DNA of 64,000 bases from Escherichia phage PNJ1809-36, in the sequence record MT944117.1; one strand, written 5' to 3'. Positions 4,976 to 33,530 of this stretch are shown in pieces. A program made the position numbers and the translations under genes. The notes beneath the pieces were generated by a model. It did not search any database and was not told where the DNA came from. It saw nothing but the letters and a program-made list of their open reading frames with translations. The stretch's first letter is position 1. Every line of letters starts with the position of its first letter.

Positions 4976-4992
4976 TACAGCACAAATAGCTA

Positions 4993-5016: not shown

Positions 5017-5044
5017 TATTGATTTCAGTTTAATAGGAAGAGAA

Positions 5045-6052: not shown

Positions 6053-6411
6053 TTGACGTTCAAATTATGCGCAACGAAAGAATGGACTTCTTTGAAGCAG
6101 TAGAGAAACATCTGATCAGATGGGACTATGAATTTGTTCCTGCTGGATGTGGACCAGTAGAGCATTTAGCGGAAGACGATGATGTATACATGATCATTCG
6201 TCAAGTGTACCAGACAGACCAGTGTGAAGAAACTCCCGAACTGATTTTGTTTGAGTGTAAAGATCTTGCAAAATATTTTGACTATGGCGGAAAAGAGGGT
6301 CATAATCTCTCCAGATACAATAAACGTCTACTTATCTTAGACTACATGCGGAACAACAAACACAAACTCATCGACGCAGACGCAGTTTATGGCTACTGGT
6401 GGATGGATTAA
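6046..6411 (+). CDS. hypothetical protein (121 aa)
   Basis: SD CAGGAGG + ATG 6046. Confidence 0.6.
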   Translation: MLVDVQIMRNERMDFFEAVEKHLIRWDYEFVPAGCGPVEHLAEDDDVYMIIRQVYQTDQCEETPELILFECKDLAKYFDYGGKEGHNLSRYNKRLLILDYMRNNKHKLIDADAVYGYWWMD

Positions 6412-6424
6412 CAAAGGAGAAACT

Positions 6425-6613
6425 ATGGCACGTTTAGCAGATAACCCTGTATTCTACCCCGTTCTTGATCTTTATGATGAATTGACATATGTTGTGGAGC
6501 GGTATAATTACAATGAAGACCTCTTGGAGACAAACCTTAAAGTAGTTCTGATGAAAGCCTATCAGCAAGGGCAACGTGAAATTTTGGAGAGTATGAAAAA
6601 TGCGAATAACTGA
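6425..6613 (+). CDS. hypothetical protein (62 aa)
   Basis: ATG 6425 after SD AAAGGAG. Confidence 0.5.
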   Translation: MARLADNPVFYPVLDLYDELTYVVERYNYNEDLLETNLKVVLMKAYQQGQREILESMKNANN

Positions 6614-13344: not shown

Positions 13345-13352
13345 CATAACAA

Positions 13353-18792: not shown

Positions 18793-18807
18793 TTGACAAC
18801 AAAACAA

Positions 18808-18833
18808 GGGCGCACCAAGCGCCCTTTCTTTTT
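18808..18833 (+). terminator. rho-independent terminator closing the early array
   Basis: GGGCGC-ACCAA-GCGCCC followed by TTTCTTTTT. Confidence 0.75.
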
Positions 18834-20366
18834 GCCCGAATAATGTTGATAGATTCCGCCTATGAAAAACCGACACAGAACAAAACTGAATAGATCGCGG
18901 TATCGAGCTAATCAACCATTAAACGAATAACCATACCTCCCAGGGTAACAGGTTGTTAGAGAGCCATTTAGAGCGGTTAAAATCGATCAACAACCAACAA
19001 CAAACCATCAAAAACACCCTTTTACCTCCTTTCTAGTGCAATGATAACCATTATCATCTATCCATGTTTATCTATGCAATATAAGTGCATAACTATAATG
19101 TTGATAATAGTTCGCAACAACTAACTAACCAACAACCTAAAACAATAAGCAAACTAATCATAATCAAAGGAATAATAGCAAGATGATTGATAACGACAAA
19201 CAATCAAACCATGATGAATACTAAGCAAGATAACGATAACACGACAAAACAACCAACTAACGAACAATAACAAACGAAACCATTAAAATAACAACTATTA
19301 GCAAAATAGTGCCTGAATGAAATCATTACAAAACGAATCATTCACAGGATCATCATTAGCACGCTATGCCGGACACATAGCGAGCTAATAATAAGCCAAC
19401 TACACCCCAACAATCATAACCATCGGTGATGGTTATTTCTTGTTACTGCGTAGCTTGCAATAATTGCAAGCGTAATGACGCTTACACTTATTGCGCTGGC
19501 TTATTATTAGCATTATATGTAATTACCAAGATCATAACATTAGCGCAATAACAATAATCATTGTGGTAATTACAAGATGAAATAATCGCTATCGCTCAAA
19601 GATTATTAGCAAGATGAATAATTGCACGTAGCAACATGAGCGAATAGCGACAGGTTGCATAGTGTGCACATAGATGTACACGCAGTGTATAAACATACAG
19701 GAAAATAAAGGCTAATCTTTTGGGGGCGAATACTATCGCGTAGCGATATGTTGAGCATCTTCTCTTAAACGTAAATAAAATCAGAAAATTCTTGATTTAT
19801 TTTAATTTTTATGTTAATAAACGTTTAAATAATAATCATTCTCATATGAATAATAGTCTGCTTGTCATGAGCGGGATTAGTTGACAATGTTCCGTCATAT
19901 GATGAGGTTGCCAAACCATTGATAAATAAGTGTTTGTGTGATTTATAATCAAGCGGCCCACCTTGTCGCTATGTTGGCATGAGCCTTGCATAAGTCATTG
20001 AATACGAATGATAATTATTCTCATTCGCATGATATTTGGGAATTGTCGCTGCGTGGACCTGACGGCCCGAAAATTCGCGTTAAGCACTTCTTACGTATGT
20101 GCCATGATTTTTGCCATATGATATTGATTCTACTAGATATTCTTGCCATGATTGCCATGAAACAGGGTGTCCCGAAATAATCTCTCCCTGTAGATATTTT
20201 GGGTTACTTTTTATACAAGAGTGGGGTGTCAAAAATAATTGGTATATATGGGATAATTGATAGGAATCCCCTATGATAATTCGATTGTAATTCCCTAAGA
20301 TTGATCGTATGATGTTGGTGATTGATGATTGCCATGAAAGATGGCTAACGATGAGAGGAGATTATC
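18834..20366. other. gene-free 1.5-kb region, strand-skewed A+C-rich (CAA/AAC-rich, G/T-poor on plus strand)
   Basis: no credible ORF; long tracts such as aaccaacaacaaaccatcaaaaacaccc and acaaaacaaccaactaacgaacaataacaaacg. Confidence 0.7.
20100..20337. repeat. five copies of TTGCCATGA-type motif including a perfect tandem pair
   Basis: TGCCATGA at ~20100, TTGCCATATGA ~20111, TTGCCATGATTGCCATGA 20143-20160, TTGCCATGA 20329-20337. Confidence 0.6.
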
Positions 20367-20741
20367 ATGCAAGAGAGTAAAAATGTTCCGTTGAGTAGTG
20401 CAACATTGCTTCGCTTCTATAAAGCATGGATTGCCAACTATCCTGCAATGAATCGCACAACGAGTGGCTTATGTGGTTGTCTGGTAGATTATGTAGATGA
20501 TTTTGTTGGTGAGACAACTAGAGAAGAAGATAGAAGATGGCGTGATCATTTGTTGGACCGTTTGAAATATGAAATGAGGAAACAATTTACATGTGCAGGG
20601 CTGGACTACAATCTTCCGTTCAATGCAGATTGCATGGATTACCTTTCAGAGTGTATAAACTTGGCGTGTCATACCAACACGTTACGTCTTCAATGGGTGA
20701 AAGACAGAATCGAAGATGCAAATAATGCTTGCATTGAATAA
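20367..20741 (+). CDS. paralog family member 1 (GLC...PF...WVKDR family)
   Basis: SD GAGAGGAG; FYKAWIANYP..SGLCGCL...LPFN...LRLQWVKDRIED. Confidence 0.65.
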   Translation: MQESKNVPLSSATLLRFYKAWIANYPAMNRTTSGLCGCLVDYVDDFVGETTREEDRRWRDHLLDRLKYEMRKQFTCAGLDYNLPFNADCMDYLSECINLACHTNTLRLQWVKDRIEDANNACIE

Positions 20742-20812
20742 AAATGTCTGTATGATGGTTTGCATGAGAGGTGCGATATCGCGCATAACAAACAGCTAAT
20801 GAGGAGATTGGA

Positions 20813-21025
20813 ATGCATAGCATGAAACGCATGAAAATTCGTATTGAGAATGATGGTGGTTATAAAGGATTGGCACATGCAAAATTTCCACTTGTGCTGG
20901 AAGCTACGGTGGAATACAGTGGGCTTGCTCATGTGCGATTCTCGAAGATGATGGAAGTGCAGGAGTGGTTTTGGGACGAGATAGATGCACGAGAAGGGGG
21001 AAGATTATGTTTTCTTTCCTCATGA
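20813..21025 (+). CDS. hypothetical protein (70 aa)
   Basis: SD GAGGAG + ATG. Confidence 0.6.
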   Translation: MHSMKRMKIRIENDGGYKGLAHAKFPLVLEATVEYSGLAHVRFSKMMEVQEWFWDEIDAREGGRLCFLSS

Positions 21026-21056
21026 ATATGAAATCGTTTATTAAAGGTTGTGTGCA

Positions 21057-21296
21057 ATGATCACACCACAACAGAATGAAGCAGCAATGGATCTTCTTGA
21101 TAGTTTGTATTTCGATAATTGGTACTCTGAATGTGAATGGATGAATATGCAAACTCTGAAAGAGAAGACAGAAGCGTTGATTACCGTAGATCAATTTCTT
21201 GCAGAGACGGAAAGAATGAATTATGATATGGCATCTCGCGCACGACGCGTTTCCATTTTCAATAAAATGTTAGCATTATGGGGAGGTAGAAAATGA
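21057..21296 (+). CDS. hypothetical protein (79 aa)
   Basis: first ATG in listed ORF 21048 (TTG start). Confidence 0.55.
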   Translation: MITPQQNEAAMDLLDSLYFDNWYSECEWMNMQTLKEKTEALITVDQFLAETERMNYDMASRARRVSIFNKMLALWGGRK

Positions 21297-21754
21297 GACA
21301 ATTCACTATACTGGCAGCTTATGTGCAATGTGTTCACGATTATGTTAGTGCTCATACAGGTTTGCTGGAAGTTAATAGTAAAATTGAAGGCAATATGGGT
21401 ACTGTCTATGTGCAACATACTTTATCTAACGTGCCGTATAAAGTGTTCACTGTTGTAGCTGCCGATTACAATCGTGTAGATGTGCGTTTCTTGGATCATA
21501 ATTTTCGTAACGCACTAGATAATATCGAAGATTATCTTCCCGTGAAACCTTTGTCATTTCCACCGAGTCGTGCAAATAATGTAGTGACAAACCTTAATGA
21601 AAGGAATGTGGCTATGCACAAAAAAGTCCGTCAACTGAAAACGCTGATGGAAATGCAAGAAGAGATTGAAAAAGAACTGAAAGAAGATTTTGGTATGCTT
21701 CCAAAAGACGCTTTGAAATGGTATGATGAACTAGGAGGAGAAAGTTATGAATAA
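21293..21754 (+). CDS. hypothetical protein (153 aa)
   Basis: SD GGGGAGG; ATGA overlap. Confidence 0.65.
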   Translation: MRQFTILAAYVQCVHDYVSAHTGLLEVNSKIEGNMGTVYVQHTLSNVPYKVFTVVAADYNRVDVRFLDHNFRNALDNIEDYLPVKPLSFPPSRANNVVTNLNERNVAMHKKVRQLKTLMEMQEEIEKELKEDFGMLPKDALKWYDELGGESYE

Positions 21755-21777
21755 AGAGACTACTGTATATTTAGTGA

Positions 21778-21921
21778 CTAAGAACACCCCAGGTTGGAAT
21801 CAGTGCTCAACACCTCGAAAAAATTCTCTCCAATGATAGCAGCAATACTGTTATCAAAGGTAGAATATAGTCGCATATAATCTTCATCCTGGAAACGGTA
21901 GACATGACCTTCTTTAAACAT
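21778..21921 (-). CDS. small antisense-oriented hypothetical protein (47 aa)
   Basis: internal ATG of listed ORF with strong SD AAGGAG 6 nt upstream. Confidence 0.45.
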   Translation of the reverse strand: MFKEGHVYRFQDEDYMRLYSTFDNSIAAIIGENFFEVLSTDSNLGCS

Positions 21922-22035
21922 TGTATGCTCCTTCTTGTTCAAGAGTGAAAGGAATGATTTCACCATAGCTGTATCGCATAGCATCAACTTCTGCTTCTGC
22001 ACGTTGTGCTAGTTCTAGTGTTGCACAGATTTTAT

Positions 22036-22389
22036 ATGGGGTTGTTGAGCACTGATGCAAATGGTAATATCTTGTCAATTGTTGTGATAGGGAGAGACGG
22101 TATTATCACTGCTAGTGATGGGGATCGTTACATAATCAATTCTGCTCATATAGATTATTTTGTTGACGGTGGTATTCGTGGTGGTCGTGGAAAACCCCAA
22201 GAAGAACCTGTTGATACAACAAAAGAAGAGTGGTATGTTGTAATGACTGATGACACCTGTATTTCTGGATTTGAAAGTTATGAAGAAGCTTTGAAAGAAG
22301 CAGCAGAGCATAAAATGGCTAATCCTACAGAAGAGGTTGAAGTTTATAAACGTTTGGTTGTTGCTACCATCGGCGTATCTTTTGTTTAA
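22036..22389 (+). CDS. hypothetical protein (117 aa)
   Basis: first ATG in listed ORF 22006; no clear SD, start uncertain. Confidence 0.45.
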   Translation: MGLLSTDANGNILSIVVIGRDGIITASDGDRYIINSAHIDYFVDGGIRGGRGKPQEEPVDTTKEEWYVVMTDDTCISGFESYEEALKEAAEHKMANPTEEVEVYKRLVVATIGVSFV

Positions 22390-22401
22390 AAGGGGAATGT
22401 T

Positions 22402-22839
22402 ATGTTTAAAGTTAATGCTGTTTACTGTTTCAAAACTAAAGCTGCCCGTGAAGCTTTCTCTATGATCTCTGATGAAAATTTCAAAATGGCAGCTTTGATT
22501 GAAGGGTCTTGTTTCCGCGTCGAAGATGTTAGTGAATCAGGCTCTGTTTGCTCATTGACTTTATTGGACAGCGGGGATATTATTGAAGCTGGACAGTATC
22601 CGTTCAGAAGTTGGGGGATATTGTTAGCTCGCGGAGAGCGTAACTTTTTTATGTGCGTGTCTGCGGGGGAAGTTGTGAAAGAAACTAAGGATGTTTCTGT
22701 TTACAATTCTGAATTTATAAGTTATAGTGAGTATCAACATCTGGAAGGCATTGTTGGTCACTTGTTATCTCTGATTAATATTGAATGTGACTTGCCTGAA
22801 TCATTGAAAGAAGAGTTGAAAGCATTAGATCTGCTATAA
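22402..22839 (+). CDS. hypothetical protein (145 aa)
   Basis: SD AAAGGGGA. Confidence 0.65.
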   Translation: MFKVNAVYCFKTKAAREAFSMISDENFKMAALIEGSCFRVEDVSESGSVCSLTLLDSGDIIEAGQYPFRSWGILLARGERNFFMCVSAGEVVKETKDVSVYNSEFISYSEYQHLEGIVGHLLSLINIECDLPESLKEELKALDLL

Positions 22840-22866
22840 TGTTTCACACAACGAAAGGAGAATAAG

Positions 22867-23166
22867 ATGAATCTGACTGAACAGTTACGCCGTATTGCAA
22901 AAGAAGCTTCCTTCAACTTCCCTGTTGAAGAAGTGATCGAGACATGTTTTGCTGAAGCACGAGCGGGAAACTCTTCAAGAAATTTCACGCCATCTGATTT
23001 TGGTTTGGATAATTCTCCTACTCACCCAGGGGAAATCTACAATCAGGTGAAATGGATGGATGAAGCAGTAGCAATTCTTCGTGAGCGTGGGCTTATTGTT
23101 TATAAAGAAATGGATCTGAACGGGGCATACGAGTGGATCACTATTGATTGGTCGGAGGTGAAATAA
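22867..23166 (+). CDS. hypothetical protein (99 aa)
   Basis: SD AAAGGAGA. Confidence 0.65.
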   Translation: MNLTEQLRRIAKEASFNFPVEEVIETCFAEARAGNSSRNFTPSDFGLDNSPTHPGEIYNQVKWMDEAVAILRERGLIVYKEMDLNGAYEWITIDWSEVK

Positions 23167-23375
23167 TGGTTACTATCACGTTGACAGTTACACAAGAGCA
23201 AGCAGAAGAATTACGTGATGCACTGGCATATATGGGACGCGCTTATTATATGCCTCACAAATCTCAAGATGTTTTTGCTACAGCCGTTGAGAAAGCTTTA
23301 AACAAATACCGAGAAACTCATGCCGTTCCTAAAGTATCAGCGGAAGAGTTTGGCACTTGGCACGAAGTTCACTGA
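23166..23375 (+). CDS. hypothetical protein (69 aa)
   Basis: ATG 23166 after GGAGGTG. Confidence 0.55.
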   Translation: MVTITLTVTQEQAEELRDALAYMGRAYYMPHKSQDVFATAVEKALNKYRETHAVPKVSAEEFGTWHEVH

Positions 23376-23385
23376 GGAGGTTTCG

Positions 23386-23619
23386 ATGAAAGGTAACAAG
23401 ATGAAAGTTAATCAAGTGCCGAGCGCATACACTTTGTGGCTTGCGCGAGCGTTACACCAGACGATCAAAAACCCTAAGAAGCCAATGAAGAGCGGGAAGA
23501 AGTTTATGTCTAAGGGCAAAACAACCTTTGGCTTCACTCGTATGTCTGTTAAGATGAAAAGACTGGGGTACAAGCCAAACTACGCTCGTTACCCTTCTGA
23601 ATACAACTGGTTTGACTAA
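23386..23619 (+). CDS. small basic protein (77 aa)
   Basis: ATG 23386 after GAGGAGG; Lys-rich. Confidence 0.55.
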   Translation: MKGNKMKVNQVPSAYTLWLARALHQTIKNPKKPMKSGKKFMSKGKTTFGFTRMSVKMKRLGYKPNYARYPSEYNWFD

Positions 23620-23631
23620 AAGGAGAAAGCA

Positions 23632-24105
23632 ATGGCAGGTTTGAAACTGGAGATGTTGACAAAGCAAGAATTTGTTCCCGAACACGGTGAAACTTACATT
23701 GCTTTCTTGATTAGTGATTTTTATGGGGATTTAGAGTATGTTGAACTGGAGTGTGAGTTTCACTACCAAATGATTGACGCAGAAACTGGTTATTGTTTGG
23801 GTACGTCTGCGGTGTATAATGGTGATAATGGCATTCCTTTTCATACCCCAATGAGGTACGAAGCGAAAAGCCGATTCAAACTTCTCACAGAAGAAGAAAA
23901 AGAGACATATAAATATCACGAAGAGGAGGATCAACGCTTCTGGTGGGAGAAAACTTGGTTCCTGTCTGATCGCCGTAATCTTCAGATTCACCCAGAAGAA
24001 CTGGATGAAATGTCCATCGGGATTATGAAGAAGAAAGACTTCATGTACCAGGTGAGAGAAGCTAATAAGTTCCGTGTTGCAACTAAAGAGGAGAACAAAA
24101 CATGA
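23632..24105 (+). CDS. hypothetical protein (157 aa)
   Basis: SD AAAGGAGAAAG. Confidence 0.65.
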   Translation: MAGLKLEMLTKQEFVPEHGETYIAFLISDFYGDLEYVELECEFHYQMIDAETGYCLGTSAVYNGDNGIPFHTPMRYEAKSRFKLLTEEEKETYKYHEEEDQRFWWEKTWFLSDRRNLQIHPEELDEMSIGIMKKKDFMYQVREANKFRVATKEENKT

Positions 24106-24320
24106 AAACATTTATTCGCGTAAAACATGATCCAAACAGCAGTTACCCATACGCGTATGTTGAACGTCATGAAGGAGCCTATTACACCATAAAACGTAAA
24201 GTCCCAACTGATACAGGGTTTAACTTTGATGTTATTGCGCTGGATGATCAAGGTGTTGATAATCTGGTGAATGCATTACTCGCATTGAAGGAAGTACGAT
24301 ATGAAAATCAGACTAATTGA
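24102..24320 (+). CDS. hypothetical protein (72 aa)
   Basis: SD AGAGGAG; ATGA overlap. Confidence 0.6.
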   Translation: MKTFIRVKHDPNSSYPYAYVERHEGAYYTIKRKVPTDTGFNFDVIALDDQGVDNLVNALLALKEVRYENQTN

Positions 24321-24492
24321 AAAGGGTGATACCATCTTCGAAACCCGTAAAGGTGAAATCACAGAGATTCCAGAAGAAAGATCAACAATCCTTGTCGATG
24401 GTGTTTTGAAATATTGCTGTAGTGTCTATAAATCTTACGAGAAGGATCAGTATGGCGATCCAGAAATCTGGTTTGTAGGAGATGTGTATTAA
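24301..24492 (+). CDS. hypothetical protein (63 aa)
   Basis: ORF overlapping upstream gene end. Confidence 0.5.
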   Translation: MKIRLIEKGDTIFETRKGEITEIPEERSTILVDGVLKYCCSVYKSYEKDQYGDPEIWFVGDVY

Positions 24493-24501
24493 GGGGGTAA
24501 A

Positions 24502-24861
24502 ATGAGCGGAGAATTTCGTAAAGTAAAAGATATCTCCTTGTTTGAAGGAGATGTTGTTAGGATGAACGGAAGATTGTTAAAATTTCACCAGTTGATGCAT
24601 CCAAGCACAACACGTAACGTGATGGTCATCTTCCAGGATGCTTTTGCTGCCAGCGATTACACTCCATATTCAGCAGAAACTGAAGTATATTTTGAAGGAT
24701 ATGTTGATCGACCACTTGCAAAAGAGATGTGGGACAAGTATCATATAAACATTACAGATTCACGGGGTGTCTTCTGGAACTACCCTAGTGAAGGTAAAGT
24801 GGCTTTCGATTCTTGTGATCGTTTAGCCGAAGAGATTGCCGAATGGCGCGATACTCACTAA
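24502..24861 (+). CDS. hypothetical protein (119 aa)
   Basis: SD AAGGGGG. Confidence 0.65.
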   Translation: MSGEFRKVKDISLFEGDVVRMNGRLLKFHQLMHPSTTRNVMVIFQDAFAASDYTPYSAETEVYFEGYVDRPLAKEMWDKYHINITDSRGVFWNYPSEGKVAFDSCDRLAEEIAEWRDTH

Positions 24862-24876
24862 AACAGGAGAAAGATT

Positions 24877-25053
24877 ATGGCTACTTTTCAACAACTGAAA
24901 GATGTTTCACGTTTAGTAAGAAAAATCCGAGAAGCAGACGCTGCTGTGCGGAATGCATTAACGCCAGCAGAGCGTGAAGATCTTGAAGAGGAGGTGAAAA
25001 CAGCCGAGAATGCTTTTGCTGCGTATCTTTCAACACTGTACACAGGAGGTTAA
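24877..25053 (+). CDS. hypothetical protein (58 aa)
   Basis: SD ACAGGAGAAAG + ATG; stop abuts next ATG. Confidence 0.5.
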   Translation: MATFQQLKDVSRLVRKIREADAAVRNALTPAEREDLEEEVKTAENAFAAYLSTLYTGG

Positions 25054-25368
25054 ATGTCAGAAGAACTAAAAGAATTTTATCAGGCATATCATAACTGGCT
25101 GTTAGCTGGCGCTCCAGATAATAATCCTTTCTGGCACGATAAAGGATTATGTAGTTGCCTCTACCTTTGGACTGGTGGTTACGATGATCTAAATTATGAA
25201 ATGCAAATGCAATTTCGAGAAGCAGGGTTGTCTGAAGAATACCCGTTTGATGACGGAGACTGGTTTAAATATGATTTTGCACAAAGAAACGGGCTATTGC
25301 ATTTGAATGCTGCCCGTATAAAATGGGTAAAAGATCATGCTACACAGGAGGATGTGCAATGCCAATAG
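25054..25368 (+). CDS. paralog family member 2 (GLC...PF...WVKDR family)
   Basis: SD CAGGAGG; FYQAYHNWLLAGAP..KGLCSCL...YPFD...ARIKWVKDH. Confidence 0.7.
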   Translation: MSEELKEFYQAYHNWLLAGAPDNNPFWHDKGLCSCLYLWTGGYDDLNYEMQMQFREAGLSEEYPFDDGDWFKYDFAQRNGLLHLNAARIKWVKDHATQEDVQCQ

Positions 25369-25559
25369 TGTTTAGTTTCTTGGTAATTGTTATGGTTGTT
25401 CTTTTCGCGGCATGGCTTTGGGATTTTGACCCAGGAGCAGCGCAGCAAAGAGCTACAGACTGGAAAGAACAGTGTATTGTGCTCAAACATGAACGAAATG
25501 CGGAGAAATTTCTTGACCTGGAGTGTGATCGCCTTGTAAGATACAAGCAAGATAAATAA
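25359..25559 (+). CDS. small membrane protein (66 aa)
   Basis: ATG 25359 after CAGGAGG; N-terminal hydrophobic helix. Confidence 0.55.
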   Translation: MPIVFSFLVIVMVVLFAAWLWDFDPGAAQQRATDWKEQCIVLKHERNAEKFLDLECDRLVRYKQDK

Positions 25560-25573
25560 CCTTGAGGTGCAAA

Positions 25574-25762
25574 ATGGTAATTGAGATTAAACTTGAATAT
25601 GCTGGGGCTGTTGCCCTGATCGCACAAATGTTGGGAGCAAAGATTGAAGAAGTGTATATCAATGCCTGGAGTGTAGAGATTGATGTTCCTATGGATAACA
25701 TTGCTAATCGCTTGCTGGTGGCAGAGTGTGAACGCACCAACATAATCTACAAAGGAGCATAA
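25574..25762 (+). CDS. hypothetical protein (62 aa)
   Basis: ATG 25574 after GAGGTG. Confidence 0.5.
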   Translation: MVIEIKLEYAGAVALIAQMLGAKIEEVYINAWSVEIDVPMDNIANRLLVAECERTNIIYKGA

Positions 25763-25763
25763 T

Positions 25764-25985
25764 ATGAAAATCAGAGTTTGTGATGTATTGGGTTATGTTG
25801 GTTTTAAGAATGTTCAGATTCCTTTTGTTGTTGAAGCACATCTTGTTAGCGATGATATGACAACATTCTTTGTTACGATAGAAGAAATGTCCAAAGTTGA
25901 GGGATGGGAGTGGTTTGAAGAAGATGTTTGGGAAGGTTGTGATTACGTATTTTTCTCTGATGAAGTGAATGTTCTTTCGGAGTAG
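25764..25985 (+). CDS. hypothetical protein (73 aa)
   Basis: SD AAAGGAG. Confidence 0.6.
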   Translation: MKIRVCDVLGYVGFKNVQIPFVVEAHLVSDDMTTFFVTIEEMSKVEGWEWFEEDVWEGCDYVFFSDEVNVLSE

Positions 25986-25987
25986 GT

Positions 25988-26194
25988 ATGTCTTGTTTTA
26001 CAAAAGCAGTATCCATATGTAAGAAACAGTATGAAAGTGATTACGGGATATTTAATATTCCAGCGGATCATACGGAGTATTGTTCATGTGGTGGCAGAAT
26101 GAAGAAAACAGTGATTTATGCGGATAATGAAGATGAACTTGTTCCGGTTATGGTTTGCAAAGCTTGTCATTCTGTTAAAACATTAAAAGCGTAA
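25988..26194 (+). CDS. small zinc-ribbon-like protein (68 aa)
   Basis: CSCGG...CKAC cysteine pairs; SD GGAG. Confidence 0.55.
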   Translation: MSCFTKAVSICKKQYESDYGIFNIPADHTEYCSCGGRMKKTVIYADNEDELVPVMVCKACHSVKTLKA

Positions 26195-26289
26195 GGAGTC
26201 GGGACACCCGACGATTGGAGCTAAAAATTTTGCGTACAACCCTTTCCGCCCAACAGGGGCGCGTCGGGTAAATAAAGAGGAGAGTTTAT
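26195..26289 (+). ncRNA. GC-rich structured intergenic element with alternative helices
   Basis: GTCGGG-ACA-CCCGAC (26198-26212); CCCGACG (26207-26213) can instead pair CGTCGGG (26262-26268); CCGCCC/GGGCG hairpin ~26246-26261. Confidence 0.35.
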
Positions 26290-26688
26290 ATGAAAAAGAT
26301 CATCGTAGGTTTATTGTTACTCATTGCATCACTCGGAACAGCAAATGCGTCTCAAGTTTATGAGTGTGTGTCAGATGTGGTTGTTAAAAATCTGAAAGGT
26401 GAAGTGATTTCTGGTCCTAAGAAAATGGCTTCTGTTGTCATTAATAAAGATAACTCCTTTATCCTTAAAAATTCAGGTGGTGCTTTGATGAGTGGCATTC
26501 TGCAATACACAGGAGAAAAAAGTAAAGATGGTAGTGCTATGTATGGTTCACAACAGTTTATTGGCACTACTGAAGTTGTGATGATGCGCACAGAGTATCG
26601 AGACACTTTAGCTTGGTTTGCATTTCTAAAAAATGATAAAACAATAACGAATGTTCTTACTCTAGAAGCTGATTGTACGCAACGATAA
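26290..26688 (+). CDS. secreted protein with signal peptide (132 aa)
   Basis: MKKIIVGLLLLIASLGTANA signal-like N-terminus; SD AAGAGGAG. Confidence 0.7.
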   Translation: MKKIIVGLLLLIASLGTANASQVYECVSDVVVKNLKGEVISGPKKMASVVINKDNSFILKNSGGALMSGILQYTGEKSKDGSAMYGSQQFIGTTEVVMMRTEYRDTLAWFAFLKNDKTITNVLTLEADCTQR

Positions 26689-26697
26689 GGGGGATTT

Positions 26698-27153
26698 ATG
26701 ACTAAAATGAGACATTACGCTGTAAACTGCAACGATGCTTGGCGTTTGTGTCCTGATGATCCGACAGAAGGTACATTTGTAAGATATGAGGATTATAAAG
26801 AGTTATCGGATGCTGTAATCGCATTGTTAACTGATATCCGTTCACGTTATCCAGGACAAGATTTCACTTGCCCTCACATCAAACTTCTTGCTTGCCTGGT
26901 AGAAGGTGAGAAAGAAGTGGAAGATGGCTTCAAGCGTGTAGAGTATCAAGGTGAAACTTTAGATGTTCCTGAATTTGTTAATTATATTGCAACAGATTCA
27001 AGTGGCGAGCGTTATGGTTACACTCATAAACCGGAGATTCCAGATTTCGCTTATGCGTGGCGTATTCCTTATGAAGTTTTTAATGTTGCAGATTGCTGGT
27101 ATTTAGGAGAAGGAAACAACCTTAATTGGCGTGATTCCTTGGTTCAGGTTTAA
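26698..27153 (+). CDS. hypothetical protein (151 aa)
   Basis: SD AAGGGGG. Confidence 0.65.
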   Translation: MTKMRHYAVNCNDAWRLCPDDPTEGTFVRYEDYKELSDAVIALLTDIRSRYPGQDFTCPHIKLLACLVEGEKEVEDGFKRVEYQGETLDVPEFVNYIATDSSGERYGYTHKPEIPDFAYAWRIPYEVFNVADCWYLGEGNNLNWRDSLVQV

Positions 27154-27157
27154 CAAT

Positions 27158-27421
27158 ATGAAAGAGACATTGCCAGCAGCATACCGTTTGAATGATGAAC
27201 GTATTTGGGAGTGGACCGACGTTTCTTGTTTTTACCCTGAAATAGTTCAATATTGGCGAGCAAAAGGGTGTGTTGTAGTTATCAACCCATGTGGACCAGT
27301 GGATGAAGATTGCTTGTATCTCGATGGAAAGTGGCACAGTTATTGTCGCTGGCCTTTTGAGTGGATGTGTAAAGAAGATCTCCCAGAGGGTTGGGAGTAT
27401 CCAAAAGCAAATAGGAGATAA
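27158..27421 (+). CDS. hypothetical protein (87 aa)
   Basis: first ATG within listed ORF 27131. Confidence 0.5.
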   Translation: MKETLPAAYRLNDERIWEWTDVSCFYPEIVQYWRAKGCVVVINPCGPVDEDCLYLDGKWHSYCRWPFEWMCKEDLPEGWEYPKANRR

Positions 27422-27422
27422 T

Positions 27423-27785
27423 ATGTCTGAAGATTTTGTTGAAGTGTTTGTCAAAGACGAAGAAACTGGTTTAGGCACAGGTTTCATTTGTGAAGAAACC
27501 TTTAAACGTGAACAAGAAAAAGCTATTCTTATGCGAAACTATGATCACGCATTAGAACAATGGAAAAATGCAGAACAAAAATGCAAAAACCTTTATGCAG
27601 AAAATAGAAAACTACAAGATCAAATGGAGTTGTTAGCTATCAGTTTACGATCTCTCATTTTGGCTGTAGAAGATGGTTTTAAAAATCCAGATGGTTTTCC
27701 TGTGAGCGATATTGAACATGATTTGTATCTTGCTCGTGGTGCTTACTTCTATGTTAAACAGAAGTCTGTAGAAGGAGAGAAGTGA
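27423..27785 (+). CDS. hypothetical protein (120 aa), coiled-coil-like
   Basis: ATG 27423 after SD AATAGGAGA; listed 27291 start overlaps upstream gene. Confidence 0.6.
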   Translation: MSEDFVEVFVKDEETGLGTGFICEETFKREQEKAILMRNYDHALEQWKNAEQKCKNLYAENRKLQDQMELLAISLRSLILAVEDGFKNPDGFPVSDIEHDLYLARGAYFYVKQKSVEGEK

Positions 27786-27982
27786 TGGAAGAAAAACTGG
27801 AACGTATTATCGAGTTAGCCATGTCTATTGGCTACGACGATTGTTTTCTCCAAACTATTGGAGAAACAGAGAACGATTACGACTCTTGGGTGAAAGAGTT
27901 GGAAGAACTTAAAACTTCCTTGATTGCTGACTTTGCTGAAGCAGAGGATAAAGCAGATCGTTACAACTATCTGTGTCGATAA
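27782..27982 (+). CDS. hypothetical acidic protein (66 aa)
   Basis: SD GAAGGAGAG; ATGA overlap. Confidence 0.6.
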   Translation: MMEEKLERIIELAMSIGYDDCFLQTIGETENDYDSWVKELEELKTSLIADFAEAEDKADRYNYLCR

Positions 27983-27985
27983 GCC

Positions 27986-28013
27986 TTGACATTTATTTTA
28001 TGTATGGTATACA
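27986..28013 (+). promoter_or_regulatory. sigma70-type promoter
   Basis: TTGACA 27986-27991, 16-nt spacer, TGgTATACA 28005-28013. Confidence 0.6.
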
Positions 28014-28044
28014 TACATTATCAACGTGAGCAAGGTGGTGTAAT

Positions 28045-28317
28045 ATGAATAAAGATCGGTTTCTTTCTTTAGTCGCGGAAGCTCCTTTTGATGTTCTTGG
28101 GGTGAGATTATGGAAAGACAGAAACTATGGGTTAGATGTTCAAACATACTCTCTTTGGTTGGTTGGGGAGCACAGTTTAGATGAAAGCTTGTGCATGGGT
28201 AGGGATTCTCGTTCCCTCTGTTTAAAGTTCAGAAGCTTAGAACGCGCAAACAAAGAGCAAGAAAAACTAACGAGGTGGCTAAATGAAAACAAGCGCAAGG
28301 TTGATGGAGTTTTATAA
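28045..28317 (+). CDS. hypothetical protein (90 aa)
   Basis: SD AAGGTGG. Confidence 0.6.
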   Translation: MNKDRFLSLVAEAPFDVLGVRLWKDRNYGLDVQTYSLWLVGEHSLDESLCMGRDSRSLCLKFRSLERANKEQEKLTRWLNENKRKVDGVL

Positions 28318-28609
28318 AATTTATTTAGCATGGATTGATGTTGGTGCTCCTGATGGTAAACCTTTTCGGCGGGATTGCGGTTTGTGTGCCAACTTATTCG
28401 ACTATGTGCACGCGGATGGCTACAATCCCCTTATAACAACCTTGTCAGATGAAATGCACGCACAGTTTTACCACAAAGGGTTGAGTCAAGAATTACCCTT
28501 CAATGAGAACTACGATGCATATGTCTTAGAATCAGATGCAGAGGTATGTCACCTGAATGTGGACAGGATTAATTGGGTAAGAGATCGTATTGCAGAGGAG
28601 GATGAATAA
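28283..28609 (+). CDS. paralog family member 3 (GLC...PF...WVKDR family)
   Basis: FYKIYLAWIDVGAP..CGLCANL...LPFN...DRINWVRDR; start 28283 or 28304. Confidence 0.65.
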   Translation: MKTSARLMEFYKIYLAWIDVGAPDGKPFRRDCGLCANLFDYVHADGYNPLITTLSDEMHAQFYHKGLSQELPFNENYDAYVLESDAEVCHLNVDRINWVRDRIAEEDE

Positions 28610-28836
28610 TGTCGGATTATAACTGGTATGAACTTGAGGCTGTTTGTCAGTTTTATGACTCAATAGTTCTGCGTGATCCAATCTGTCAAGAATTGAGTCG
28701 CCGTGCAAGTGCATTGGCAATCCGTGTTAAAATAAACGGTTGGAACGCAGATTTGGAAAAAGAGTTGGAATTTCTCTTAGAAAACACGCGGGTCTTCCGC
28801 AAAGTGTTCCCTGAATGGTTTGAGATGGAAGAATGA
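28609..28836 (+). CDS. hypothetical protein (75 aa)
   Basis: SD GAGGAGG; ATGA overlap. Confidence 0.6.
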   Translation: MSDYNWYELEAVCQFYDSIVLRDPICQELSRRASALAIRVKINGWNADLEKELEFLLENTRVFRKVFPEWFEMEE

Positions 28837-29051
28837 TCATGTGGATTGTGCGTCTTAAGTATGATGGCAAGTTTCCGTGGGAGAAAGATGTTTGTGCTTG
28901 TGATTCGGCAGCACATGCCAAAGCAGCGGGTCAGGCAGTAGTTGACATGTATAACAACACTTCCGTTGATCCAGAAATGGCAGGTGTTACAATGAGCATG
29001 TTCACTTACTATTCTTTTGAGGTTTACTATCATGAAGGAGAGTGGAAATGA
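28833..29051 (+). CDS. hypothetical protein (72 aa)
   Basis: ORF; ATGA overlap both ends. Confidence 0.55.
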   Translation: MIMWIVRLKYDGKFPWEKDVCACDSAAHAKAAGQAVVDMYNNTSVDPEMAGVTMSMFTYYSFEVYYHEGEWK

Positions 29052-29368
29052 GCGAAGAACTATTAACATTTTACCGCACGTATTTGGCATGGTTGGAAGC
29101 TGGTGCTCCTGAAGGCGAACCGTTCACCCGTTGCACAGGTTTGTGCTCGAACCTCTATCATTTTTACGATATGGGTGAAAGCGAACGATACGAACCCGTA
29201 CTGGATGAAATGCATGAGCAGTTCTACCGCAAAGGTTTGGTTATGGTGTTGCCTTTCAACAGTAATTTTGGAAAGTACACCTTAGAAGCGGAAAAAAGCC
29301 GCTGTCACTTGAATGTGGATCGTGTGAACTGGGTAAAAGAACGTGTAGCAGAAGAAATAATTGGTTGA
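29048..29368 (+). CDS. paralog family member 4 (GLC...PF...WVKDR family)
   Basis: ATG 29048 after AAGGAGAG; FYRTYLAWLEAGAP..TGLCSNL...LPFN...DRVNWVKER. Confidence 0.7.
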   Translation: MSEELLTFYRTYLAWLEAGAPEGEPFTRCTGLCSNLYHFYDMGESERYEPVLDEMHEQFYRKGLVMVLPFNSNFGKYTLEAEKSRCHLNVDRVNWVKERVAEEIIG

Positions 29369-29422
29369 CAGAGGGATCTGTCTTTGTCATAATCATCTCA
29401 TCGAAACAGAGAGGAGAGAATC

Positions 29423-29836
29423 ATGAAAAAGTTTATTTGCACCCGTTCCACTAACAGTGATATCCTTGTAGGTAAGGTTATCAAAGGAGAACTCTTCCAT
29501 GCAAACGGTAAGAAATATATTCTGCTGAAAGATTCTTTCAACGGGGAATATCCGCGCTGCACTTTCTTCAATTACAACACTCCATTTGCTTTAGAAGGAG
29601 ATGCTTGGGACTGGGCTGAACTCAATCCTTGTTGTGAGGAAGAAGAATCTATGTTCTTAGGTTTAAACGTTTACCGTGTAGATTACACCATGTGCGGAGC
29701 GGAACATTCTGTTCGCGTAGAAGCCGAATCCAAGCTACAAGCACCTTTCAAGGCGGGATTGCCTTTGGGTCATTGTTTGGCAAACATTGAAGATGTTGTG
29801 ATCCAAAGAGTTGTTTTAGAGAAAGGGGCTATTTGA
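29423..29836 (+). CDS. hypothetical protein (137 aa)
   Basis: SD AGAGGAGAG. Confidence 0.65.
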   Translation: MKKFICTRSTNSDILVGKVIKGELFHANGKKYILLKDSFNGEYPRCTFFNYNTPFALEGDAWDWAELNPCCEEEESMFLGLNVYRVDYTMCGAEHSVRVEAESKLQAPFKAGLPLGHCLANIEDVVIQRVVLEKGAI

Positions 29837-29889
29837 CAGAAAACGGTACAATATTTAAAATATAAAGATTAACCACAAAAGGAGAGAAA

Positions 29890-30189
29890 ATGCAAGTTGA
29901 AGACCTGATCCAGATTCTGAATAGAGCCAAAGAGAAGGGTGCTATCAAAGACTGGAAACGTGAAACGAGTGAAGACCTATCTCACTGTTGCCGAGAATTT
30001 TACATCGAAGGTATTGCTGACGATCATTATACTATCGAATGGTATATCAACTTAATGACCCTTAAGCACGGTTCATTTGAGATTTGGTTTGATGACATTG
30101 ATGTAAATGGTTTTCATCCTGGCTATAAAATCGCTATGCAGTTATCTTATCGTAGAGAAGTTGTAGCACATTTGGGTTTACATAACTAA
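29890..30189 (+). CDS. hypothetical protein (99 aa)
   Basis: SD AAAAGGAGAG. Confidence 0.65.
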   Translation: MQVEDLIQILNRAKEKGAIKDWKRETSEDLSHCCREFYIEGIADDHYTIEWYINLMTLKHGSFEIWFDDIDVNGFHPGYKIAMQLSYRREVVAHLGLHN

Positions 30190-30199
30190 GGAGAAAAGA

Positions 30200-30523
30200 A
30201 TGCAAGCAGTTGTTAACGAAGCTATTATGAACTTATCCTTCTTGTTAGCTGGTTTAGGAGGTGTTCTCATAGGTTTGGGTCTTATCTGGTGTATTCGTCG
30301 ATTAATCGGGTACCGACAAAAAGGTGTTTCATGTTTTGTATCTTACAATTTTACAACTGCTTACAGCAATGAAGTTGGATCTGGTAATGCTCAAGCATTT
30401 TTACCAACATATCCTCCTACGGTGGAAGATATTCGAAACTTGGAAGTACAACTTATGGGACTAGGTGATAACTATACATCTCTAGTTATTCAAAATATTT
30501 TTCGACTAAAACAGGGGGCGTGA
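30200..30523 (+). CDS. membrane protein (107 aa)
   Basis: SD AAGGAG; N-terminal hydrophobic helix LAGLGGVLIGLGLIWCI. Confidence 0.6.
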   Translation: MQAVVNEAIMNLSFLLAGLGGVLIGLGLIWCIRRLIGYRQKGVSCFVSYNFTTAYSNEVGSGNAQAFLPTYPPTVEDIRNLEVQLMGLGDNYTSLVIQNIFRLKQGA

Positions 30524-30736
30524 ATGAAGGTACATTACCCTCATCCCTTTGATCCTAAAAACAAAGCCGTAATTCTTCGTCAGTGGCAACGGGTTTGTCG
30601 TACTAAATGTCCAATCAATAGCCCACACAATGTAGACAAGGACTATCTTGGTACATTTGTTGAATACACTTACATAGACAAAAACAAGCGTAAACAACAT
30701 GTCGAGGAATACTGCTTAAGAGTAGAATGGCTGTAA
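30524..30736 (+). CDS. hypothetical protein (70 aa)
   Basis: SD AGGGGG; ATGA overlap. Confidence 0.55.
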   Translation: MKVHYPHPFDPKNKAVILRQWQRVCRTKCPINSPHNVDKDYLGTFVEYTYIDKNKRKQHVEEYCLRVEWL

Positions 30737-30748
30737 ATAATAAATACC

Positions 30749-30777
30749 TTGACAAGTGTTTATTCGTTTTGTAAAGT
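30749..30777 (+). promoter_or_regulatory. sigma70-type promoter upstream of recombinase gene
   Basis: TTGACA 30749-30754, 17-nt spacer, TAAAGT 30772-30777. Confidence 0.55.
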
Positions 30778-30806
30778 GGGAATACAGCAATGGTTTAGGA
30801 GTGGTT

Positions 30807-31478
30807 ATGAAAAAGTTTGTTGTTTACAGTCGTCTTTCTAAACAGAAAAAAGGTGAGGCACAATATGGTATGGAGAGCCAAGAGAATGATATCCGTTACT
30901 TCTTAGACTCTGTGCCTGATGCGGAAGTTATTGGTCAATTTTCTGAATACTATTCGGGTAAGGGCGATTGGAAGCAACGTAAGGAACTGGTTAAAGCGGT
31001 TGAAATGTGTAAAGCTACCGGAGCAACTTTATTGGTAGCTAAAGTTGACCGCTTGGGTCGTAACAACGCCTCTGTAGCAACTCTTCTAGAGATGATCGAT
31101 GTTAAGATAGCCATCATGCCAGACGCAGATAAAATGGTTATACAGCTTCTGTCTGTTCTGGCTGAACAAGAAGTTAGAGGTATTGCTGATCGTATTAAAA
31201 AGGGTCTTGCTGTAGCAAAAAGCAAAGGTGTTTTATTAGGCAGTGCTAATCCTAAAACTGCCGCTGCACGTAGAAAAGGGAAAATGGAATACAACTCTGT
31301 TAAAGCAGACGCTTTTGCAGAGACATTCCGTGAACGCTTGGAGATCCTTAGAGATTTAAATACACCTTACAAAACTATTGCTGAAAAATTCAATAGTAAG
31401 AAAATAGCAACAGCACGTGGTGGTAAATGGGATGCTAAAACTGTTTCTCGTTTGTGTGCCAGACTGAACATTAAATAG
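30807..31478 (+). CDS. serine recombinase (resolvase/invertase family)
   Basis: VVYSRLSKQ (catalytic Ser region), LLVAKVDRLGRN, QLLSVLAEQEVRGIADRIKKGL match resolvase catalytic domain; C-terminal HTH-like tail; ATG 30807 after GGAGTGG. Confidence 0.8.
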   Translation: MKKFVVYSRLSKQKKGEAQYGMESQENDIRYFLDSVPDAEVIGQFSEYYSGKGDWKQRKELVKAVEMCKATGATLLVAKVDRLGRNNASVATLLEMIDVKIAIMPDADKMVIQLLSVLAEQEVRGIADRIKKGLAVAKSKGVLLGSANPKTAAARRKGKMEYNSVKADAFAETFRERLEILRDLNTPYKTIAEKFNSKKIATARGGKWDAKTVSRLCARLNIK

Positions 31479-31486
31479 GAGAGGAT

Positions 31487-31909
31487 ATGAAACAAGAAAA
31501 TGAATCTGTAGATCACTTAATCATGCTGTCAGCCCTTTTTGCCGGATGGGACGTATTTTTTGAAAATTTGTTCAATTCTTCTACAGATGGTTCCGATTTT
31601 ATGCGCCAGTTTAAACGACGAACTGTTGAGGACTATGCTTTCTATTCAGGTCGGATTGAAAAAGGTTACGAAGATACAAATACAACACTCACCATTAAAG
31701 TTTTAGATGTGATGTTTAGTGTTATAGATGCTATCGACGAAAGTCTTCCGATCCTAGACAATTGTAATACGAAAGCCTATGTTTACAAAATAGCTCGTGC
31801 TTATGTGTCTGCAAACAGTTGTCTTCTTTCCACCCAGATTGCCGTGAACAATCTTGCCAACTTGTTTGATGAAGGAGAAACTTTTTATGACAATCGATTT
31901 GAAGTGTAA
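31487..31909 (+). CDS. hypothetical protein (140 aa)
   Basis: SD AATAGGAGAGG. Confidence 0.65.
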   Translation: MKQENESVDHLIMLSALFAGWDVFFENLFNSSTDGSDFMRQFKRRTVEDYAFYSGRIEKGYEDTNTTLTIKVLDVMFSVIDAIDESLPILDNCNTKAYVYKIARAYVSANSCLLSTQIAVNNLANLFDEGETFYDNRFEV

Positions 31910-32252
31910 GAGGATTCTTTTAGATTTCTATAATAATTGGTTAGAACACCTCCGTCTCTTTCCAAGAGAAAGTGGTTACGCTGATGTTGGCTTATGCCGA
32001 GGTCTGCGTATGTATATAAGTGATGAATTTCGGGCAGAGCATTCTTTAGCATATTCTGTTTATGGTATGCAATTAGCCAGTTTTGAAAACGCTGGCTTAG
32101 ATACAACTTTCCCATTTAACACAGCAAAATCTTTTGATCAAGAGTGTAAGGAAAAACGTTGCATGTTTAATGAAAAACGTGTACAGTGGGTTAAGGATCG
32201 AGTTAAACAACTGGAACAAGAGTTGGATTTCTTCTATGATGAGGCAGAATAA
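31887..32252 (+). CDS. paralog family member 5 (GLC...PF...WVKDR family)
   Basis: ATG 31887 after GAAGGAGAAA; FYNNWLEHL..VGLCRGL...FPFN...KRVQWVKDR. Confidence 0.6.
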   Translation: MTIDLKCKRILLDFYNNWLEHLRLFPRESGYADVGLCRGLRMYISDEFRAEHSLAYSVYGMQLASFENAGLDTTFPFNTAKSFDQECKEKRCMFNEKRVQWVKDRVKQLEQELDFFYDEAE

Positions 32253-32524
32253 TGGATAGACAAACCTTAAAAACAATGGCAGATGCCACTAATTCCCCGT
32301 ACTTTGAAAAAGTAAGTAAATTGGTAGCTCAAGCCGCAGAGGAAGGATATTATAACATAAACATCCATAACCCAAGTCTTATACTAGAAATGCCAAGTGA
32401 TAAGAAGATACAAGAGAGTATCTGTGAAGGTATTGTTAGTTACTGGCGCGAGCGTGGGTGTGGTGCAAACATGGCTTTAGACAGTGCAAACATTGTAAGA
32501 TATATAAATATTTCTTGGGGGTGA
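32252..32524 (+). CDS. hypothetical protein (90 aa)
   Basis: SD GAGGCAG. Confidence 0.6.
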   Translation: MDRQTLKTMADATNSPYFEKVSKLVAQAAEEGYYNINIHNPSLILEMPSDKKIQESICEGIVSYWRERGCGANMALDSANIVRYINISWG

Positions 32525-32528
32525 TTTT

Positions 32529-33140
32529 ATGATTCAATGCACTCATATCCAAATTACTTGGAGAGATGAACTTTACCATTTGGGACAATTTACTGTAGGG
32601 GAAACATACCCTGTCATTAAACATAATCCTAACATCGCAAACTTTGATAGGATGGTTCTTGTTGAGGACGATCTGGGTCAAACTTATTCTTTAGATCTAA
32701 AATATCCGTTTTCTTACGGCTACGATTGGATCGTTACTTTTGAAGACGTGGAGGAAAATAAAACAATGAACGAAAAAAATTCTTGGTATTATCGTTGTGA
32801 ACTGCCGCCAGTAGGTGAAAAGGTTATCTTTGTTCCTGATTTGGAAAGATATTCTTGGGACAGTTCTTATTCTATTCCTAAAGAAGGCACCGAAGTTGAA
32901 GTTATTGCACATCGCACAACTTCGCATGGTAACGATGTAGCAGTTGTTTTCTGGGATGATGAAGGCGCTGCTTGTGCAGGTGGCTTTGTTGCAGGTAATT
33001 TTGAACCCCTGCCAGATCCTTTGAAGGAGGCAATTTTAGGCGTAGCTTCTTTTGGACTCTCTTACACATCTGCACAAGAGATCGTAGAAGGTATTTTAAA
33101 CGGTACCGTTCCAAACGAAATTTTTAAACAGATTAAATAA
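32529..33140 (+). CDS. hypothetical protein (203 aa)
   Basis: SD GGGGGTG. Confidence 0.65.
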   Translation: MIQCTHIQITWRDELYHLGQFTVGETYPVIKHNPNIANFDRMVLVEDDLGQTYSLDLKYPFSYGYDWIVTFEDVEENKTMNEKNSWYYRCELPPVGEKVIFVPDLERYSWDSSYSIPKEGTEVEVIAHRTTSHGNDVAVVFWDDEGAACAGGFVAGNFEPLPDPLKEAILGVASFGLSYTSAQEIVEGILNGTVPNEIFKQIK

Positions 33141-33147
33141 TAGTTGC

Positions 33148-33175
33148 ACCCCGTTCTGCGGGGTGTTATTGTATA
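33148..33175 (+). terminator. putative rho-independent terminator
   Basis: CACCCCG-TTCTG-CGGGGTG followed by TTATTGTAT. Confidence 0.55.
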
Positions 33176-33191
33176 TGTAAAGGAGGCGCTA

Positions 33192-33530
33192 ATGTATTAC
33201 ACTGAAGACTACATATTGTATAACTTTTTTAAAGGTTGGTTGAAATGGGCGGAACAAGCTCCTGTCGGAGATTGTGTTTTTCCTTGGGATTCTCGTCAAG
33301 GCTTGTGTCGTTGTTTGGAAGATTGGCTTATAACCACAAACTACAATTCAGAAACTAAGAAATCTACATCAAACAGATTAAAAATGTTGTTTGAAGAAGA
33401 TGGTTTAGATCCAATTTATCCTTTCGGTGAGGAAAGTTTCCACAATGGTCTTTTCCTTGGCACTCAACATTATGATAAAGATCGTGTAGATTGGGTAAAA
33501 GAAAAGGTAGCACAGTATGAATGGGGTTAA
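33192..33530 (+). CDS. paralog family member 6 (GLC...PF...WVKDR family)
   Basis: ATG 33192 after AGGAGG; FFKGWLKWAEQAP..QGLCRCL...YPFG...DRVDWVKEK. Confidence 0.65.
   Translation: MYYTEDYILYNFFKGWLKWAEQAPVGDCVFPWDSRQGLCRCLEDWLITTNYNSETKKSTSNRLKMLFEEDGLDPIYPFGEESFHNGLFLGTQHYDKDRVDWVKEKVAQYEWG

Follow-up and report, generated by a model that had tools for sequence, protein, structure and literature searches.

Why should a virulent phage keep six diverged versions of one small gene within 13 kilobases (kb), and what might their products be for? The question is raised by Escherichia phage PNJ1809-36 (sequence record MT944117.1), of which a stretch of 64,000 nucleotides (nt), hereafter the window, was analysed. 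An earlier reading of the letters alone (the original prediction) had picked out, between positions 20,367 and 33,530, six open reading frames (ORFs) with a shared residue pattern in a plus-strand block of small genes, and had suggested diversifying selection of the kind seen for anti-defence or host-targeting effectors. The present analysis confirmed the six genes to be true, deeply diverged paralogs of one phage-restricted protein family, which look expressed and were shown to be under purifying selection.

All six ORFs are present on the plus strand at the predicted starts and encode proteins of 104–124 amino acids (aa). Each is listed below with its Shine-Dalgarno (SD) sequence, its expect value (E) against PHROG 2510, the ratio of nonsynonymous to synonymous substitution (dN/dS) against its orthologs and, for four copies, its E in a leave-one-out search, in which a hidden Markov model (HMM) of five copies was run against the sixth.

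20367-20741, + strand: copy 1, 124 aa; SD GAGGAG; PHROG 2510 E 2e-25; leave-one-out HMM E 9e-19; ortholog dN/dS 0.24
25054-25368, + strand: copy 2, 104 aa; SD AGGAGG; PHROG 2510 E 8e-29; leave-one-out HMM E 8e-23; ortholog dN/dS 0.016
28283-28609, + strand: copy 3, 108 aa; SD GAGGTGG; PHROG 2510 E 3.5e-32; ortholog dN/dS 0.21
29048-29368, + strand: copy 4, 106 aa; SD AGGAGAG; PHROG 2510 E 1e-30; ortholog dN/dS 0.18
31887-32252, + strand: copy 5, 121 aa; SD AAGGAGA; PHROG 2510 E 3.5e-26; leave-one-out HMM E 1e-17; ortholog dN/dS 0.084
33192-33530, + strand: copy 6, 112 aa; SD AAGGAGG; PHROG 2510 E 6e-27; leave-one-out HMM E 4.5e-16; ortholog dN/dS 0.064

The colinear motif described in the original prediction was reproduced by a MAFFT alignment running end to end, with identities to the first sequence of 25–40% and 15 invariant columns (L, F, P, GLC, L, F, GL, PF, R, and WV). 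In the leave-one-out searches, the omitted copy was recovered each time at an E of 4.5e-16 to 1e-31, against 0.1–0.9 for the best unrelated ORF among the 675 six-frame ORFs of the window, so that the shared residues are both colinear and significant. Pairwise BLASTP was significant for 14 of the 15 pairs, with E values of 4e-5 to 1e-39; 20367/33192, the weakest of the pairs, is connected via the remaining copies. An HMM of all six sequences returned exactly six matches in the whole window. An SD sequence is located 5–9 nt upstream of the ATG in every copy. That the similarity arose by chance, or that the ORFs are non-coding, is scarcely credible, being refuted by the leave-one-out values, the SD sequences, dN/dS well below 1, thousands of homologs, and a high-confidence fold.

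The setting was likewise described correctly as a plus-strand small-gene block of a lytic phage. The window is 96–98% identical to genomes of Phapecoctavirus, a genus of phAPEC8-like E. coli myoviruses (subfamily Stephanstirmvirinae; genomes of ~150 kb), as found when a 14-kb stretch was compared with about 50 full-length genomes. The six genes lie within a plus-strand block of small genes, and the GC skew is positive from 20 to 38 kb.

The original prediction had not recognised the family, and the reference collections led to the same outcome. For the six copies, Pfam-A and NCBIfam gave no match near the curated threshold, PADLOC gave a single chance-level match (PifA, E 0.02, 11 bits), and no well-characterised housekeeping domain was matched; the annotated relatives of the six genes are all named “hypothetical protein”. 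A word-index homolog search retrieved close relatives only, with no informative names and no domain fusions. All six copies match PHROG 2510 over the whole domain (E 1e-25 to 1e-32), an automatic cluster without functional annotation, and the weaker matches (PHROGs 6418, 27059, and 2176) are also of unknown function. Given that the PHROG 2510 profile has 219 positions and the six proteins cover only positions ~5–113, it evidently spans tandem two-domain members as well. The family is so far catalogued only as function-unknown PHROGs, and its closest named relative is gp3 of phage N4.

The extent of the family is considerable. An exhaustive HMMER search covering 1.84 billion cluster representatives yielded 1,902 clusters (50% identity) at E≤1e-3 and 948 at E≤1e-10. 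Most members are single-domain proteins of 95–125 aa; among 192 collected sequences, 18 were found to contain two domains and 2 to contain three, the latter from the Burkholderia phages BcepSaruman and BcepSauron. A few carry an N-terminal transmembrane segment or a C-terminal zinc ribbon, or are embedded in modular prophage proteins. When 132 diverse members were searched against Pfam at E≤1, no Pfam family was matched by more than 2 of them, and Pfam, NCBIfam, and PADLOC scans of the fusion proteins gave nothing consistent. By tblastn, 258 of 50,697 phage records contain the family, with hosts that are all Proteobacteria; several copies per genome occur in Phapecoctavirus, Justusliebigvirus, and Klebsiella ZCKP1, one or two in rV5-like phages and a jumbo Erwinia phage, and a single copy in N4-like, T7-like, and T1-like phages. 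Only 1 of 72,556 plasmid records gave a match, on which ground an association with plasmid leading regions was rejected. An unrelated metagenomic phage contig of 104 kb (L013) harbours an independent cluster at 3953-6474, in which four adjacent genes (111, 233, 244, and 107 aa), two of them tandem fusions, together encode six copies of the domain.

The part of the original prediction that did not survive is diversifying selection. Gene-wide dN/dS was computed by the Nei-Gojobori method for each window gene against its orthologs in seven related genomes, and the values for the six copies (0.016–0.24) are indistinguishable from those of neighbouring genes, most of which fall at 0.06–0.25; each copy is thus under ordinary purifying selection, the 25054 copy being the most constrained of the six. 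The copies do not stem from a recent burst either. Identity among the six is 24–54%, with the 33192 copy the most divergent (24–29% to the other five), and the distances between the paralogs are as great as those to members found in unrelated phages. The 25054 and 33192 copies are nearer to relatives from outside, in phages or metagenomes (about 50% and 36% identity, respectively), than to any copy in their own genome, and the six-domain cluster of L013 is equally deeply diverged. Viewed jointly, these findings point to the copies being old. Only the 28283/29048 pair, with 54% identity over HMM match columns (50–52% by BLASTP), looks like a later duplication.

The number of copies varies between close relatives. 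An HMM scan of eight Phapecoctavirus genomes counted 5, 6, 7, or 10 copies: 5 in ESCO5, which is without the 29048 copy; 6 in the present window, SF1-1, and Ro121lw; 6 of a different set in phAPEC8_ev052, with an extra upstream copy and no 29048 copy; 7 in Mt1B1_P17 and AV125, with an extra copy upstream of the 20367 ortholog; and 10 in PsgM04F, three of them in consecutive overlapping genes. The 29048 copy is dispensable, as it is cleanly missing from ESCO5 and phAPEC8_ev052, where window positions 29050-29353 are absent as a single block. In Mt1B1_P17, the extra copy is a 314-nt insertion that joins within the 20367 gene's shared 5′ end (window 20386-20399), and the scan placed the extra copy of AV125 and phAPEC8_ev052 at the same position. 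Both changes, the loss of one gene-sized unit and the gain of another, are in keeping with paralogs having recombined unequally. In PsgM04F, a more distant genome, the protein of the 28283 ortholog shows 81% identity; no ortholog of 31887 or of 33192 was found there (best match 35–36% identity), and other divergent family members occupy the corresponding part of the block.

What kind of protein has been preserved in this manner? The 28283 copy, the most typical member, was chosen for structure prediction, and the model accordingly covers this one of the six. AlphaFold2 with a 29-sequence alignment produced a confident model (predicted local distance difference test score, pLDDT, 95.1; predicted template modelling score, pTM, 0.87) of five helices at residues 5–19, 34–42, 50–64, 77–85, and 93–107. 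A Foldseek search of BFVD, a collection of predicted viral structures, matched it to 17 uncharacterised phage proteins at E<1e-3 with template modelling (TM) scores of 0.70–0.87. Against the PDB, the best Foldseek E was 1.9, profile searches of PDB sequences with two alignments gave no match, and no fold similarity was found to solved anti-defence structures such as Ocr, ArdA, Acb2, Tad1/Tad2, Gad, and the Acr families. The predicted five-helix fold therefore appears to be new, in that these searches, within their limits, matched it to no solved structure. A naturally occurring two-domain member was modelled with similarly high scores (pLDDT 94.7, pTM 0.81), and this confidence implies that one domain packs in a fixed manner against the other. 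The packing in the tandem member is a hint, albeit not proof, that single-domain members may dimerise.

Conservation was assessed across 220 instances of the domain, with residues numbered as in the 28283 protein. Hydrophobic positions are conserved at L7, F10, Y11, W17, L34, L38, M58, F62, L67, P72, F73, Y80, W98, and V99, and the motif that emerges reads L, FY, W ... GLC.(N/C)L ... (E)M..QF..AGL....PF(N) ... Y..E ... (C)H.N..R..WV. Two polar residues, Cys35 (99%) and Arg95 (98%), are near-invariant, as is the Pro-Phe pair (99%), followed by Asn92 (91%), Gln61 (81%), Glu57 (78%), His90 (75%), Glu83 (74%), Asn74 (71%), and Cys89 (44%). The 31887 and 33192 copies retain the Cys, Pro-Phe, Arg, and Trp and have lost several of the other conserved polar residues, the divergent 31887 copy carrying E57G, Q61S, and H90M. 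A family-wide zinc site was considered and rejected, with at least three Cys or His at positions 35/37/89/90 in only 47% of 232 domains. A DNA-mimic role in the manner of Ocr or ArdA was rejected on charge: the six proteins are only moderately acidic (isoelectric point, pI, 4.5–5.3; net charge −4 to −10), and the family has a median pI of 5.5 with an upper decile above 8.

The location of relatives in other phages gives some indication of when such genes might act. N4 gp3 (YP_950481.1, 104 aa) matched the six-sequence HMM over its full length with 58 bits and an E of 7e-20, and tblastn with N4 gp3 reciprocally recovered the Phapecoctavirus copies. It belongs to the same family and shares the GLC, PFN, CHLN, and R..W motifs; it is a small gene within a block of small early genes, much like the small-gene setting of Phapecoctavirus, whereas N4 has a single copy as against the six of the window and the identity is only about 30%. 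The N4 member, gene 3, lies between gp1/gp2 and gp15/gp16; according to a review of N4, gp1 and gp2 are early products, and ORF15 or ORF16 mutants give infections that resemble those in which early gene products are lost. N4-like phages infecting Achromobacter, Erwinia, and E. coli have the gene at the same left-end position. The Ralstonia T7-like phage RSB1 carries its member as ORF5 in the class I region, just upstream of a gp0.7-type kinase; a T1-like Shigella phage has it among the small genes following a helicase/VRR-NUC module; and a lambdoid prophage has the domain inside a modular protein of 441 aa that is encoded between the cI side and xis/int, the position of lambda ea22. These N4, RSB1, T1-like, and lambdoid locations are early or accessory. 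For the prophage fusion protein P0149, an E. coli origin was rejected. No function of N4 gp3 was reported in the N4 review or in full-text literature searches, and no functional statement was found in the literature on PHROG 2510 or on the paralogs or early genes of phAPEC8 and the Stephanstirmvirinae.

Tentatively, and at a likelihood put somewhat below even, the family is proposed to be an accessory, early-expressed host-interaction module that acts as a dimer to bind a host protein or ligand, its paralogs having distinct specificities. The predicted compact five-helix domain of ~100 residues has a hydrophobic core with the motif (L, FY, W, GL, L, F, L, PF, WV) and a conserved putative patch centred on Cys35 and Arg95, joined in most members by His90 and Asn92. 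It would probably act by binding something common to Proteobacteria, a host protein or a ligand, without catalysis being involved, and probably as a dimer, so that the paralogs could pair as homo- or heterodimers. The old Phapecoctavirus copies would each have a distinct conserved job (subfunctionalisation) rather than being engaged in an ongoing arms race, and individual copies would be gained or lost as gene-sized units via recombination between paralogs. A modular host-interaction protein is the best fit for the restriction to Proteobacteria phages, the early or accessory position, the natural dispensability, the duplication and tandem fusion, and the constraint on orthologs; moreover, the loss of several polar residues from the strongly constrained 31887 and 33192 copies accords better with a binding scaffold than with one fixed active site.

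Several points weigh against this proposal. No homology ties the family to a function, and we infer its binding, its dimerisation, and its early timing in this phage. A Cys conserved at 99% with a frequent adjacent His could equally signify catalysis or metal binding, and the near-absence from plasmids is unlike many general anti-restriction genes. Furthermore, the promoter-plus-hairpin cassettes that are repeated in the neighbouring 8–18 kb block were not found in the block of the six genes, so the temporal class of the family in Phapecoctavirus is presumed from position; a sigma-70 promoter scan of the family block performed no better than shuffled sequence, and no expression data on the family in Phapecoctavirus were found in the literature.

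The arms race among anti-defence effectors envisaged by the original prediction is regarded as unlikely, though it retains a real share of the probability. Ortholog dN/dS is not above that of the neighbours, the paralogs diverged long ago and not in a recent burst, neither PADLOC nor any solved anti-defence structure was matched, the proteins are too moderately acidic to resemble DNA mimics, and the family is almost absent from plasmids; nevertheless, accessory or early positions are the usual ones for anti-defence genes, the copy number ranges from 5 to 10 among close relatives, PsgM04F has divergent members in place of any found orthologs of 31887 and 33192, expansions recur in other large phages, and a gene-wide dN/dS on a few close genomes is compatible with a few positively selected sites. 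An anti-defence or host-effector role as such stays plausible from gene position. A bolder form of it, to which a similarly low probability is assigned, holds that large phages might keep a new fold, able to form homo- and heterodimers, as combinatorial paralogs and tandem fusions, each version of which would neutralise its own host target (an immune sensor, an effector, or a signalling molecule) via the Cys/Arg site.

It is rather improbable that the family is instead a small enzyme or a metal- or cofactor-binding protein, in which Cys35 would act with His90, Asn92, Arg95, and Glu57 and the paralogs would differ in their substrate, whether a small molecule, a nucleotide signal, or a macromolecule. 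Such conservation as that of these residues and Gln61 across very different phages would be unusual for a pure binding scaffold, but polar residues other than Cys35 and Arg95 have been lost from two constrained paralogs and no enzyme-like fold was matched. Less probable again is a phage-intrinsic regulator, such as a transcription or replication cofactor, that is not directed at the host. N4 gene 3 directly follows the genes of gp1 and gp2, which are middle-transcription cofactors, the left-end position is kept across the N4-like phages of three host genera, and each ortholog is under strong purifying selection. The family nonetheless occurs in phages of unrelated transcription and replication strategies (N4-, T7-, T1-, and rV5-like, jumbo, and lambdoid prophage), single copies are naturally dispensable, and 5–10 copies are hard to square with one cofactor role.

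Comparison with known systems places the proposed host-interaction module in context. In BcepSaruman gp339 and BcepSauron gp341 (344 aa) and in metagenomic two-domain members, the same domain occurs two or three times per polypeptide, whereas the copies of the window are separate single-domain genes spread over 13 kb. T4-type and similar large virulent phages possess multi-copy families of small early ORFans in plastic regions, which the family block resembles in its numerous small function-unknown genes, its strand bias, its gain and loss of gene units, and its mosaicism; the analogy is one of genome behaviour, homology aside, and differs in that the typical promoter/stem-loop cassettes sit in the neighbouring 8–18 kb block. 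MazG proteins are all-helical. A MazG-like (p)ppGpp pyrophosphatase, Atd1, is the sole anti-defence gene listed for Phapecoctavirus and is also listed for Justusliebigvirus (PMC11724313; bioRxiv 10.1101/2022.06.09.495361). The likeness lies in its being a small protein of the same phage genus that acts on host physiology; identity with Atd1 was rejected, as the family has no MazG Pfam match and no EExxE-type motif in its alignment.

The six genes thus represent a solid lead rather than an explained system, and they are not housekeeping genes, a known domain, or an artefact. Most phage early genes are dark matter, into which this family provides an unusually good entry point by virtue of its very large size, its restriction to Proteobacteria phages, its confidently predicted fold without a solved relative, its near-invariant Cys and Arg, and its N4 member. 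The Cys/Arg signature is suited to clean point mutants and N4 is a tractable model phage, while the expansions to 5–10 copies, the natural knockouts of the 29048 copy (ESCO5 and ev052), and the tandem fusions are ready comparative material. Should a role in host takeover or counter-defence prove true, thousands of “hypothetical proteins” would be annotated at once; if not, the family would be one of many uncharacterised PHROGs. Should the paralogs indeed neutralise different host targets, they would constitute an unrecognised and very widespread class of counter-defence or host-takeover proteins, with an unstudied N4 gene as its founding member.

The remaining features of the small-gene block and its surroundings are as follows.

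18800-20366: ORF-poor stretch of ~1.5 kb, after a bidirectional terminator-like hairpin
18806-18826: bidirectional terminator-like hairpin, AAGGGCGCACCAAGCGCCCTT, with further copies near 13351 and 18242
20813-21025 and 25764-25985: another pair of paralogs, smaller, of 70 and 73 aa (33% identity, E 3e-8)
30807-31478: serine recombinase (Pfam Resolvase; PHROG 125 “DNA invertase”), with a longer ORF from a GTG at 30756
33146-33166: terminator-like hairpin directly upstream of the 33192 copy

The 20367 copy is the first gene past the ORF-poor stretch (18.8–20.36 kb). Several GenBank records of Phapecoctavirus begin at window position ~19754, so that their maps number the first family copy as “gene 1”. 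The serine recombinase stands midway in a virulent phage's small-gene block and is misannotated in some records as “methionine ABC transporter ATP-binding protein”; recombinase aside, the ten larger block neighbours that were scanned gave PHROG matches of unknown function throughout and no Pfam matches. A duplicated two-gene cassette as the origin of the six copies was rejected, the neighbours of the copies being mutually non-homologous except for the separate 20813/25764 pair. The ortholog of 25764-25985 is annotated as “protein ea8.5” in Shigella phage SF1-1.

Upstream, on the plus strand between 8300 and 17850, a cassette is repeated in at least 14 copies. Its order is a sigma-70-like promoter (TTGACA-N17-TAnnnT), the element (C/T)AC(A/G)TAGGGCGG, which opens a short GC-rich hairpin, a ribosome-binding site, and the ATG of a small gene. 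The string ACRTAGGGCGG has 14 matches against 0.5 expected, all on the plus strand and none within 20–64 kb. In appearance, the cassettes are repeats of an early promoter with a 5′ stem-loop element, and they mark their block as differing in transcription class from that of the six genes.

Records labelled as phages of Campylobacter, Acinetobacter, or Pseudomonas are near-identical in DNA to E. coli Phapecoctavirus, Campylobacter B15 and Acinetobacter ABPW7 at 96–97%, and their host labels may be unreliable. At window position ~38000, the GC skew and the coding strand flip, and the genes from 38 to 64 kb lie on the minus strand; the arm of PsgM04F that matches this part carries Sir2-like, DNA methyltransferase, DprA-like, NinI-like phosphatase, and tRNA-synthetase-like genes.

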